Shown piece by piece: positions 19,709 to 21,109 of a stretch of DNA of 28,453 nucleotides; within the stretch, counting starts at the first letter, position 1; each line of letters starts with the position of its first letter. The stretch lies in the UHGV virus genome UHGV-0259231. The stretch is one strand, 5' to 3'. The DNA is from a virus. The notes beneath the pieces were generated by a model, which was given only the letters and a program-made list of their open reading frames with translations, did no database searches and was not told the origin of the DNA. Position numbers and translations under genes: made by a program.

Positions 19709-20927
19709 TGGCGTTATCCTTCTGCTTACCGGCTTTACTGCCATCGGAGGGTTTCGTGGTCATGTTCATCGGGGTGAGATAGACATCACCACCGGGACGC
19801 GGATTCATATCTTCCAGGTCGCGGCAGTCATTAGGAGAGTAAATTCCCCAGTTGATCCCGGTGGCGTAGGCTTCAAAACGGGACTTCATATCCCCGCGCA
19901 GTAACGCCCCGGCGTTAAATTTGGCGTAATAAACGCCCTGCTTACTTTTTCGTACCAGTCCGGTGTTGATCCGCTGCTCAATGCGGGTCAGATACGGCAC
20001 CAGTGAATAGTTGATAAATCCCAGCCCCAGCTCTTCGATATTGTTGAAGGTGGCGCGATCGGTGTTCTGCACCATGTGCAACGGCACCCGAAACAGACGA
20101 CAGATTTCTTCAAGCTGAAACTTGCGGGTTTCCAGGAACTGGCTGTCCTCGGCGTTCAGCGCCATCGACTTCCAGTCCAGCCCCATCTCAAGGATCATCG
20201 GGCGGTGAGCATTGCCAAGCCCGGTGTGACGCTCCTCAAAATCTTTCTTCAGGCGCTCGTAAGCCTGATCTGACAGCGTCTGCTCTGTACGCAACACACC
20301 GGACGTCACCGCACCATTGCTGAACAGTCTGGCCCCGTGCTCTTCGGTCGCTGCCGCCAGCGATATTGCCTCGCGGGCATAGCCGATGGGATTCAGCCCC
20401 ACCAGTCCGTCCAGCGTCAGCGTGCGCACATGCCAGATATCCTCCTGGCTCAGTACATCCGTGGAGCCGTCCGGGAATGTGACCTGATAGACCGGCTCCC
20501 AGCTACTGTTAAGCTTCGGTACCACACAGCCAGGATCGACGGGCAGCAGTTCAGCCACTTCGCCAAATGCTTTCACTTTGTAGGCGTAAAAGTTTCCCCT
20601 CAGGCACAGACAGGTGACCACCAGCTCCCAGAACTCCTGCGGCGTCATATATCCATTGGGATGCGTGGAGATCAGCTTATGCAGACGTTCGCCGGTGGCT
20701 CTCTGTTTCAGGCTGCCGTTCAGGTGATACAGATTGCAGGGCAACATCCCGACCGACTCTGCCAGCACCCTGACGCAGGAAAAAACCGCCGTCAGTCGCA
20801 TGGCCCGCTGGCTGCTGATCTGCTTTCCGGTATAGGTGTCGTATGACAGCCCGATAGCATCCGCCAGCTCTGCTGGCGTGGTCACCGGCGCGTCACTTTT
20901 TCGTTGAAATAATCCCGAAAAGAACAC
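19686..20927 (-). CDS. Portal protein (HK97 family)
   Basis: 413 aa, immediately downstream of the terminase region. GTG start at 20927 with a strong GGAGGT Shine-Dalgarno. Confidence 0.85.
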   Translation of the reverse strand: MFFSGLFQRKSDAPVTTPAELADAIGLSYDTYTGKQISSQRAMRLTAVFSCVRVLAESVGMLPCNLYHLNGSLKQRATGERLHKLISTHPNGYMTPQEFWELVVTCLCLRGNFYAYKVKAFGEVAELLPVDPGCVVPKLNSSWEPVYQVTFPDGSTDVLSQEDIWHVRTLTLDGLVGLNPIGYAREAISLAAATEEHGARLFSNGAVTSGVLRTEQTLSDQAYERLKKDFEERHTGLGNAHRPMILEMGLDWKSMALNAEDSQFLETRKFQLEEICRLFRVPLHMVQNTDRATFNNIEELGLGFINYSLVPYLTRIEQRINTGLVRKSKQGVYYAKFNAGALLRGDMKSRFEAYATGINWGIYSPNDCRDLEDMNPRPGGDVYLTPMNMTTKPSDGSKAGKQKDNANADETTS

Positions 20928-21109
20928 TATTTACCTCCGCCGACAGACGGCTGTGTACGGTCGAGATATCGCGCCACCAGCCACGACCAGAACAGGCACA
21001 GCGCCCCGGCAACAACAAAACCCGCCGGGGGATAAATCAGCCAGGCACCATACGCCAGCAAAAGCGCACCCAGCACGCCCACCAGTGGCGCGAGAATTAT
21101 CAGAAACAT
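20927..21109 (-). CDS. Small two-helix membrane protein (60 aa) inserted between terL and the portal gene
   Basis: ATG at 21109 with a GAGGT Shine-Dalgarno 5 nt upstream; its stop overlaps the portal GTG (TAGTG). Two hydrophobic segments ([24 protein letters not shown] and [16 protein letters not shown]). Confidence 0.55.

Follow-up and report, generated by a model that had tools for sequence, protein, structure and literature searches.

Phages make several kinds of small protein with which a short hydrophobic gene product among head genes can be compared. T4 Imm and HK97 gp15 are small multi-helix inner-membrane phage proteins, and HK97 gp15, encoded in the tail region, is a moron expressed in its own right from the prophage. 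Class II holins and pinholins such as S21 have two helices, both ends inside the cell and a short charged C-terminus, while lambda gpW is a soluble protein. In phage T4, gp40 is a membrane-associated chaperone for the portal initiator gp20, and is a precedent for membrane-bound portal initiation (PMC9958956). Here we analyse a small gene at 20927..21109, on the minus strand of UHGV virus genome UHGV-0259231, between the genes for the terminase large subunit (terL) and the portal; the whole stretch of 28,453 nucleotides is called the window in what follows. The gene is almost certainly the phage orthologue of YmfR of E. coli K-12 e14 (PHROG 502), expressed as part of the late operon. As for what its product does, our best overall explanation, which we offer tentatively and as a possibility, is that this YmfR orthologue is a late inner-membrane partner of portal or prohead assembly.

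Identity of the gene and its annotation in public records

The window protein matches phrog_502 ('membrane protein') at E = 2e-27 over residues 1-55 of 60, and only PHROGs recognises it, as searches of Pfam, NCBIfam and PADLOC with the protein returned no meaningful family. In E. coli K-12 MG1655, ymfR (WP_000605606.1) is a 183-nt coding sequence (CDS) whose product is identical to the window protein at 56 of 60 residues (93%). The two genes share their length, their slot and the one-base overlap with the gene that follows, and differ in their surroundings: in MG1655 e14, ymfR stands intact with a truncated pseudogene on either side, terL on one and portal on the other (L139 1654-3391), whereas the module is intact in the window. 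A gene of 183 nt could survive in e14 by chance, and we draw no conclusion about selection by the host from its survival there. A ymfR-bearing region is present in 1589 of 5426 complete E. coli genomes (~29%).

The gene is therefore already known: it has been annotated in public records since the early 2000s, belongs to a named family and is covered by a PHROG of its own. In Salmonella phage ST64B it is Sb3, 94-97% identical wherever BLAST masking leaves sequence to compare. Counterparts at 94-97% are also found in Shigella phages SfI and SfII and in phiP27, where they are annotated as 'putative integral membrane protein', and SfIV carries the gene without annotation.

The region is 100% identical to Escherichia phage vB_EcoM-606R7 (ON470580), in which the small open reading frame (ORF; CDS URC08750.1) is misnamed 'head-tail joining protein W', a label that several sister records carry as well. 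The source of this misannotation is the slot, since lambda gpW is encoded at the same place, between A (terL) and B (portal), and is of similar size. The identity with a lambda gpW-like head-tail joining protein, as given in ON470580 and related records, is nevertheless refuted by composition and by lack of similarity, and we dismiss it with near certainty: the window protein is almost wholly hydrophobic, with two membrane-length helices, and has no match to the Pfam gpW family at E up to 1. In addition, the annotation downstream of the capsid gene already includes separate genes for head-tail connector, adaptor and neck proteins. The same record (ON470580.1 10553-11976, corresponding to window 19686-21109) annotates the portal from an internal start, as a protein of 353 aa, which leaves a gap of 180 nt.

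The predicted membrane hairpin

The gene, a counterpart of ST64B sb3, runs from ATG to TAG and encodes 60 aa that are predicted to form an inner-membrane hairpin; its minus-strand orientation is a correction to an earlier sequence-only reading of this DNA. AlphaFold2 (AF2), run with a 26-sequence alignment, placed helices at residues 2-25 and 27-52, followed by a disordered tail (pLDDT 73), and by eye the hydrophobicity of this YmfR-type protein is very high throughout residues 1-49. Hydrophobic helix 1 (codons 2-25, 21035..21106, minus strand) coincides with the first AF2 helix and carries the family-wide G11, G14 and G21, plus P8 and W23 in the alignments. It is followed by the tight turn YPPAG (codons 26-30, 21020..21034, minus strand), predicted to be periplasmic, which is the best-conserved motif of the family both in the alignments and in distant representatives. 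Hydrophobic helix 2 (codons 31-49, 20963..21019, minus strand), within the AF2 helix of residues 27-52, has conserved G35, C38, L39, W41 and S42 and then a basic residue at position 47. The remaining codons 50-60 (20930..20962, minus strand) encode a variable tail, which is probably cytoplasmic and is nearly neutral except for its terminal Gly-Gly. The window protein has the layout of the family, namely about 60 aa, two hydrophobic helices and a short Pro/Gly turn (G11, G14, G21, P27, P28, G30, G35).

Judging from its hydrophobicity and the positive-inside rule, the protein is probably an inner-membrane hairpin with an N-in/C-in topology. Both ends would be cytoplasmic because a basic residue follows helix 2, the N-termini of distant members are basic, and the turn is uncharged. 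The hairpin probably also self-associates, since each helix has a face of small residues (G11/G14/G21 in the first; G30/A34/C38/S42 in the second) and naturally duplicated four-helix versions occur. These tandem-duplicated members (P0153, P0164, P0170 and P0220) are 102-122 aa long with four predicted helices, and suggest that a single hairpin may work as a dimer or a higher oligomer. Among the homologue matches listed, none has the hairpin fused to portal or terL, the only fusions being these hairpin-hairpin duplications. An Rfam scan of 20500-21500 returned no RNA family, and so gave no sign of a structured RNA beneath the ORF.

The layout of two helices, both ends predicted inside and a charged C-terminus is that of class II holins, a match of architecture only. 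The protein might accordingly modulate lysis timing or membrane energetics, as a holin-, antiholin- or viroporin-like oligomer, scaled to head-gene expression, that alters membrane potential or the triggering of the holin. The glycine-rich helix faces and the tandem duplications suggest oligomers, the lysis cassette lies in the same late operon ~3 kb upstream, and an ASKA clone of ymfR gave a halo indicating D-alanine leakage, in the first round of a screen only (PMC10299036). However, the leakage halo was also seen in 65 of 392 membrane-protein clones, for which the authors suspect, in part, damage by overexpression, and the ymfR clone stayed viable when induced with 0.1 mM isopropyl β-D-1-thiogalactopyranoside (IPTG) (PMC10299036). 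The window gene is, moreover, not beside the endolysin gene, as holin S, a different protein, is encoded in a contiguous block with endolysin R and Rz ~2.8-4.4 kb upstream; the small protein matches no Pfam or PHROG holin family; and its gene stays beside the portal while lysis cassettes differ between lineages. We consider a role of this kind unlikely.

Conservation and selection

A search of a collection of 5.8 billion proteins returned 164 homologues at E <= 1e-3, nearly all of them exactly 60 aa long, from Escherichia, Salmonella, Shigella, Citrobacter, Klebsiella, Enterobacter, Hafnia, Yersinia and Buttiauxella. Invariant in this set are P8, G11, G14, G21, W23, Y26, P27, G30, G35, C38, L39, W41, S42 and G58-G59. 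A profile search of 1.84 billion cluster representatives extended the family to 380 clusters at E <= 1e-3, almost all of 45-80 aa, whose representatives have in common G11, G14, G21 and G35 and the motif YGAWL(I/V)YPPAG(F/Y)I. These four glycines and the YPPAG-centred motif are retained down to ~35% identity.

At the DNA level (63 distinct sequences), the third codon positions of the small-ORF frame vary most, and the ratio of nonsynonymous to synonymous change (dN/dS) is ~0.3. The core, residues 2-47, has a dN/dS of 0.30 in close pairs and a pN/pS of 0.42 in all pairs; for residues 48-57 of the tail the corresponding values are 0.45 and 0.89. Purifying selection acts on the membrane-embedded core and the turn, and not on the C-terminal tail. 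The sequence-only reading had proposed that relatives be surveyed for absent or frameshifted copies, and here its claim survived, the ORF being intact in virtually all close relatives. All 112 related loci have an ORF of 50-65 aa, exactly 60 aa in 91 of them, and frameshifted copies came down to one in a Shigella flexneri genome and a few singleton variants in the protein collection. With 164 homologues, a dN/dS of ~0.3 and an intact frame across related loci, the gene is more than a chance ORF.

Constraint that lies on the intramembrane core and the turn rather than on the probably cytoplasmic tail, in a family that spans very different hosts, could also reflect another kind of membrane effect directed at the host, in which the hairpin would bind and modulate a conserved inner-membrane host protein late in infection. 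The slot would then be a historical accident locked by co-adapted neighbours, and any gene between the C-terminal tail of terL and the portal would hitch-hike. Against this, no target suggests itself, and searches of Pfam, NCBIfam and PADLOC gave no matching family. Deletion of ymfR in K-12 gives no host phenotype, and its locus serves as a neutral site for integration (PMC9145139), although the lack of a phenotype says little about infection. We regard this explanation as possible, if doubtful.

Junctions with terL and portal

The small ORF is tightly packed between its neighbours, all three genes being on the minus strand. Upstream, terL (21121..22878; 585 aa; Pfam TerL_ATPase and TerL_nuclease) ends in a TAA stop 11 nt before the ATG of the small ORF, and the Shine-Dalgarno sequence GAGG (21115..21118, minus strand) lies 5 nt before that ATG and is kept in relatives as (t/c)GAGG. 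Downstream, the portal gene (19686..20927; 413 aa; Pfam Phage_portal at E = 1e-107) starts with GTG, at a gap of -1 nt. The 3' codons of the small ORF are GGC GGA GGT AAA TAG. They hold the Shine-Dalgarno sequence of the portal, GGAGG (20934..20938, minus strand), inside the codons for Gly58-Gly59 and 6 nt before the portal GTG, and they end in the stop/start overlap TAGTG (20925..20929, minus strand), in which TAG (20929..20927) and GTG (20927..20925) share base 20927.

This arrangement is not peculiar to the window. The one-base stop/start overlap is present in every lineage examined, as TAGTG here and as TGATG or TAATG elsewhere, and all lineages have a Shine-Dalgarno-like purine run (GGAGG, GGGGG or GAGG) inside the last codons of the small ORF. 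The invariant C-terminal GG(E/D/K) of the protein is thus explained at the nucleotide level, by the ribosome-binding site of the portal. Portals of other lineages begin MFFPG or MFLPG at the homologous junction, and because that junction is conserved we take the GTG at 20927 to be the true portal start. The sequence-only reading had described a 60-aa two-helix hydrophobic protein between terL and portal, a good Shine-Dalgarno and a stop that overlaps the portal start with translational coupling, and all of this agrees with the coordinates, the AF2 helices and the overlap given above.

Ribosomes leaving terL almost certainly meet GAGG 11 nt downstream and translate the small ORF, the last codons of which supply the GGAGG of the portal, and the stop/start overlap then passes translation on to the portal. 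Through this chain of coupling, from terL to the small ORF to the portal, the small protein and the portal are made in a fixed, low ratio.

It might be asked whether the ORF is simply a spacer for translational coupling, in which translation, and not the product, delivers ribosomes and sets portal output. The invariance of the overlap and of the internal portal ribosome-binding site across lineages would suit this, as would the direct coupling of portal to terL in phages without the ORF. However, the peptide itself is conserved, in its glycines and turn motif and in its low dN/dS, its two-helix hydrophobic character recurs in three related PHROGs, and coupling needs no 60 specific codons. We therefore find a pure spacer highly improbable.

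Synteny and inheritance with the portal

On contigs taken at one genome per species, the order terL, small ORF, portal was found in 30 of 32 loci. Of the two exceptions, L114 turned out to be a spurious match within an ABC-transporter gene, and at L109 a small ORF and portal are present without a detectable terL match. The syntenic loci include Mangrovibacter, Serratia, Erwinia, Lonsdalea, a metagenome-assembled genome (MAG) of Alcaligenaceae and a dozen Halomonadaceae; in the last group the small protein is ~50% identical to that of the window, the portal ~39% and terL ~37%. Three distant metagenomic members (33-42% identical) have the order HNH, small terminase (terS; Terminase_4), terL, small ORF, portal, S49 protease and capsid, and the order terL, small ORF, portal extends to marine metagenomic contigs. 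In the window, an HNH gene (23508-23858, minus strand) lies directly upstream of the gene for a P27-family small terminase (Terminase_4; 22878-23360, minus strand), and the arrangement HNH, terS, terL recurs in all distant loci that have the small membrane ORF. The E. coli-type module was also met, at 93-99% identity, in records labelled as unrelated organisms, namely a MAG called 'Bacillota bacterium' (L085), Edwardsiella hoshinae (L087) and 'Enterococcus phage Efm 3-10' (OR844959.1, 1764 bp), which are probably contamination or mis-binning and not genuine host range.

Recombination has joined this module to different neighbours, and the position of the breaks is informative as to which genes travel together. 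Phage Evi shares with the window terS (97% at the amino acid level) and terL (99% over residues 1-567), and its nucleotide identity then drops from ~97% to ~40% about 18 codons before the terL stop (~21180); downstream of this break it has a different 53-aa two-helix ORF and a portal that is only 29% identical. In the ST64B-type phages, the match to the window extends no further than ~30 nt upstream of the small-ORF ATG (break at ~21139). In 41 loci, a portal of at least 95% identity and a small ORF of 92-98% identity are joined to an unrelated terL (<45%), and in 25 loci a similar portal and small ORF are joined to the terL type of the window. These patterns show the small ORF travelling with the portal and head module, plus the last 6-18 codons of terL, and not with the body of terL. 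The small gene is vertically inherited with the portal/head module. The mosaic breakpoint is sharp, at ~21139-21180 within the last 6-18 codons of terL, with the Evi and ST64B-type patterns being opposite to each other. The C-terminal tail of terL is thus passed on together with the portal, in keeping with a function of that tail in docking to the portal.

The sequence-only reading had also called a membrane protein in the packaging module unexpected, and had suggested that a conserved slot might here carry a factor for exclusion or host interaction, in other words moron-like cargo. These two points were not supported. A two-helix ORF of 52-67 aa is common at this place in HK97-type head modules of Proteobacteria, and the gene shows no marks of cargo in its signals, composition or distribution. 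A consensus scan found no promoter upstream of the small-ORF ATG and no terminator on the coding strand, where the sole promoter-like site ends inside the small ORF. GC content is 0.58 across the small ORF against 0.53-0.63 in the portal, so that composition gives no anomaly. Close relatives show no presence/absence polymorphism, as the gene is in all loci with a portal of at least 70% identity, and its absence is limited to distant lineages with portals of <=35% identity. The window protein has no match among the PADLOC-DB defence profiles at E <= 1. In K-12, ymfR is induced together with other e14 lytic genes under SOS, by log2 4.5 (~23-fold) (PMC10012262). By these features, the small gene is not a moron-type exclusion cassette.

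A function in superinfection exclusion or entry block, with an inner-membrane hairpin that hinders incoming phage DNA in the manner of T4 Imm or HK97 gp15, can be considered apart from the cassette, and also seems to us improbable. The conserved parts of the protein are intramembrane or in the predicted periplasmic turn, on the side from which the tail tip of an incoming phage approaches, some lineages manage without the gene, ymfR has stayed intact in the decayed e14 between two pseudogenes, and PHROGs places family 502 in its category 'moron, auxiliary metabolic gene and host takeover'. On the other hand, set against these proteins, the window gene has neither its own signals nor a GC anomaly, its place is among the head genes, and its conservation resembles that of a core gene. 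Its conservation is slow and broad, over alpha-, beta- and gamma-Proteobacteria hosts, unlike that of typical exclusion genes, which are fast-evolving and patchy. The K-12 orthologue follows SOS-induced lytic genes, so expression in the prophage state is not indicated; PADLOC gives no match, and the survival of a 183-bp ORF in e14 may be due to chance. Exclusion is also at odds with the occurrence of one head module on different tail types, as the tail in the window is lambda-like and those of ST64B and SfV are Mu-like and contractile.

The same slot in other phages

Other lineages were found by sampling portal homologues across the phage collection, which gave a small sample. ORFs of 52-67 aa with two helices lie between terL and portal in Azospirillum phage Cd, Klebsiella phage KpLi5, Vibrio phage K303 and Salmonella phage F1055, and others of this size and layout occupy the slot in Escherichia phages 733R5, Evi and PhiR49_2 and in Pseudomonas phages D3 (orf3) and PG1. 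Gp30 of Azospirillum phage Cd, annotated as 'membrane protein', is a clear relative of YmfR. The slot ORFs belong to PHROG 502, 7105 and 4810, the profiles of which match one another collinearly. In cross-matches, Evi matches 502 at E = 2e-6 and 4810 at 6e-4, K303 matches 7105 at 3e-5 and 502 at 2e-4, and the window protein matches 7105 at 0.016. Members of 7105 (Evi, PhiR49_2, F1055, 733R5 and K303) and of 4810 (D3 orf3) resemble the window protein in size, in their two helices, in their slot and in the way in which they overlap or abut the portal start, but they are without the turn-centred motif of YmfR, and the portals to which they are attached are only 27-35% identical. When the YmfR alignment was compared by hhalign with single Evi-type or D3-type sequences, the matches were weak (E ~0.02). 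Resting on the PHROG cross-matches, we consider it likely that 502, 7105 and 4810 form one superfamily.

The Gram-positive and actinobacterial phages in the sample, namely Bacillus phage J5a, Streptomyces phage Vash, Streptococcus phage Javan38 and Mycobacterium phage BIB8, have no hydrophobic ORF in the slot, and Javan38 and BIB8 hold non-hydrophobic ORFs there. The gap in Javan38 (L121 1436-2333) has three soluble small ORFs, two of which overlap and resemble a toxin-antitoxin pair, so that the terL-portal junction can host true cargo genes in other lineages. The small gene is a lineage-conserved accessory, confined in this small sample to phages of Proteobacteria.

A possible membrane partner of the portal

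We propose that the protein may be an accessory factor of the lytic cycle that is tied to the portal. Like T4 gp40 for gp20, the hairpin would provide the portal or the complex that initiates the prohead with an address at the membrane, and would be helpful yet dispensable, given that HK97 and several other lineages do without the gene. The hydrophobic helices, the coupling and the co-inheritance make this a predicted membrane-associated protein genetically tied to the portal, and a gp40-like role fits best because the gene keeps its position, is coupled to the portal and is conserved in the manner of core genes. The two proteins would be alike in being phage membrane proteins that act at the portal step of head assembly. 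They have no sequence relationship, however, and in T4 the gene is not adjacent to gene 20. By this analogy, an accessory role in portal or prohead initiation is conceivable, and we rate it as a somewhat doubtful possibility.

Several observations weigh against an assembly role of this kind. The C-terminal tail, which is predicted to be the only sizeable cytoplasmic part of the protein and is the part expected to bind the portal, is nearly neutral, and no feature of the portal N-terminus discriminates lineages that have the small ORF from those that lack it. We know of no membrane step in HK97 or lambda head assembly. In the related Proteobacteria phages HK97, SaltyDalty, Proteus phage Pm34, Stenotrophomonas phage Silvanus, Pseudomonas phage CF53a and Moraxella phage Mcat16, terL abuts or overlaps the portal gene with no ORF between them, and the gene is therefore not generally required for the assembly of HK97-type heads. 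Co-inheritance with the portal is itself to be expected whatever the function, because the gene lies between the terL C-terminal tail and the portal. Finally, we found in the literature no functional study of, or experiment on, any member of the YmfR family, and usable indirect data came only from papers on ymfR.

Extending the portal-partner reading to all of the slot proteins, the YmfR-type hairpins and those of PHROG 7105 and 4810 could together be a widespread and unrecognised membrane component of HK97-type head morphogenesis in phages of Proteobacteria, made one-to-one with the portal through coupled translation and tethering or nucleating the portal or prohead initiator at the inner membrane, in a step like that of T4 gp40. 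We think this broader proposal unlikely, and mention it as speculation.

Other features of the window

Two features further upstream on the minus strand were noted. ARAGORN identified four tRNA genes (Gly-TCC, Thr-TGT, Lys-TTT and Met-CAT) at 25778-26087 (minus strand), a stretch flanked by the Q antiterminator region and the lysis cassette; the public record annotates just three of them (Gly, Thr and Met). In the lysis cassette, a 60-aa ORF with a lipoprotein-signal-like start (23963-24145, minus strand) lies in another frame inside the Rz-like gene (23901-24380, minus strand), and such an embedded ORF is the usual Rz/Rz1 spanin arrangement.

Implications

For annotation, our analysis corrects a recurrent error, in which the small gene is called 'head-tail joining protein W' and the portal is given a truncated start. 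Since the ribosome-binding site of the portal is inside the small ORF, deletions of the gene need to preserve that site. More broadly, the gene encodes a very small membrane protein that has been kept over long evolutionary distances, in a fixed slot and translationally chained to the portal. If its role lies in exclusion or in lysis timing, its conservation would be unusual for such a factor. If it instead partners the portal during assembly, the textbook assembly pathway would gain a step at the membrane, in phages that are thought to assemble their heads free in the cytoplasm.

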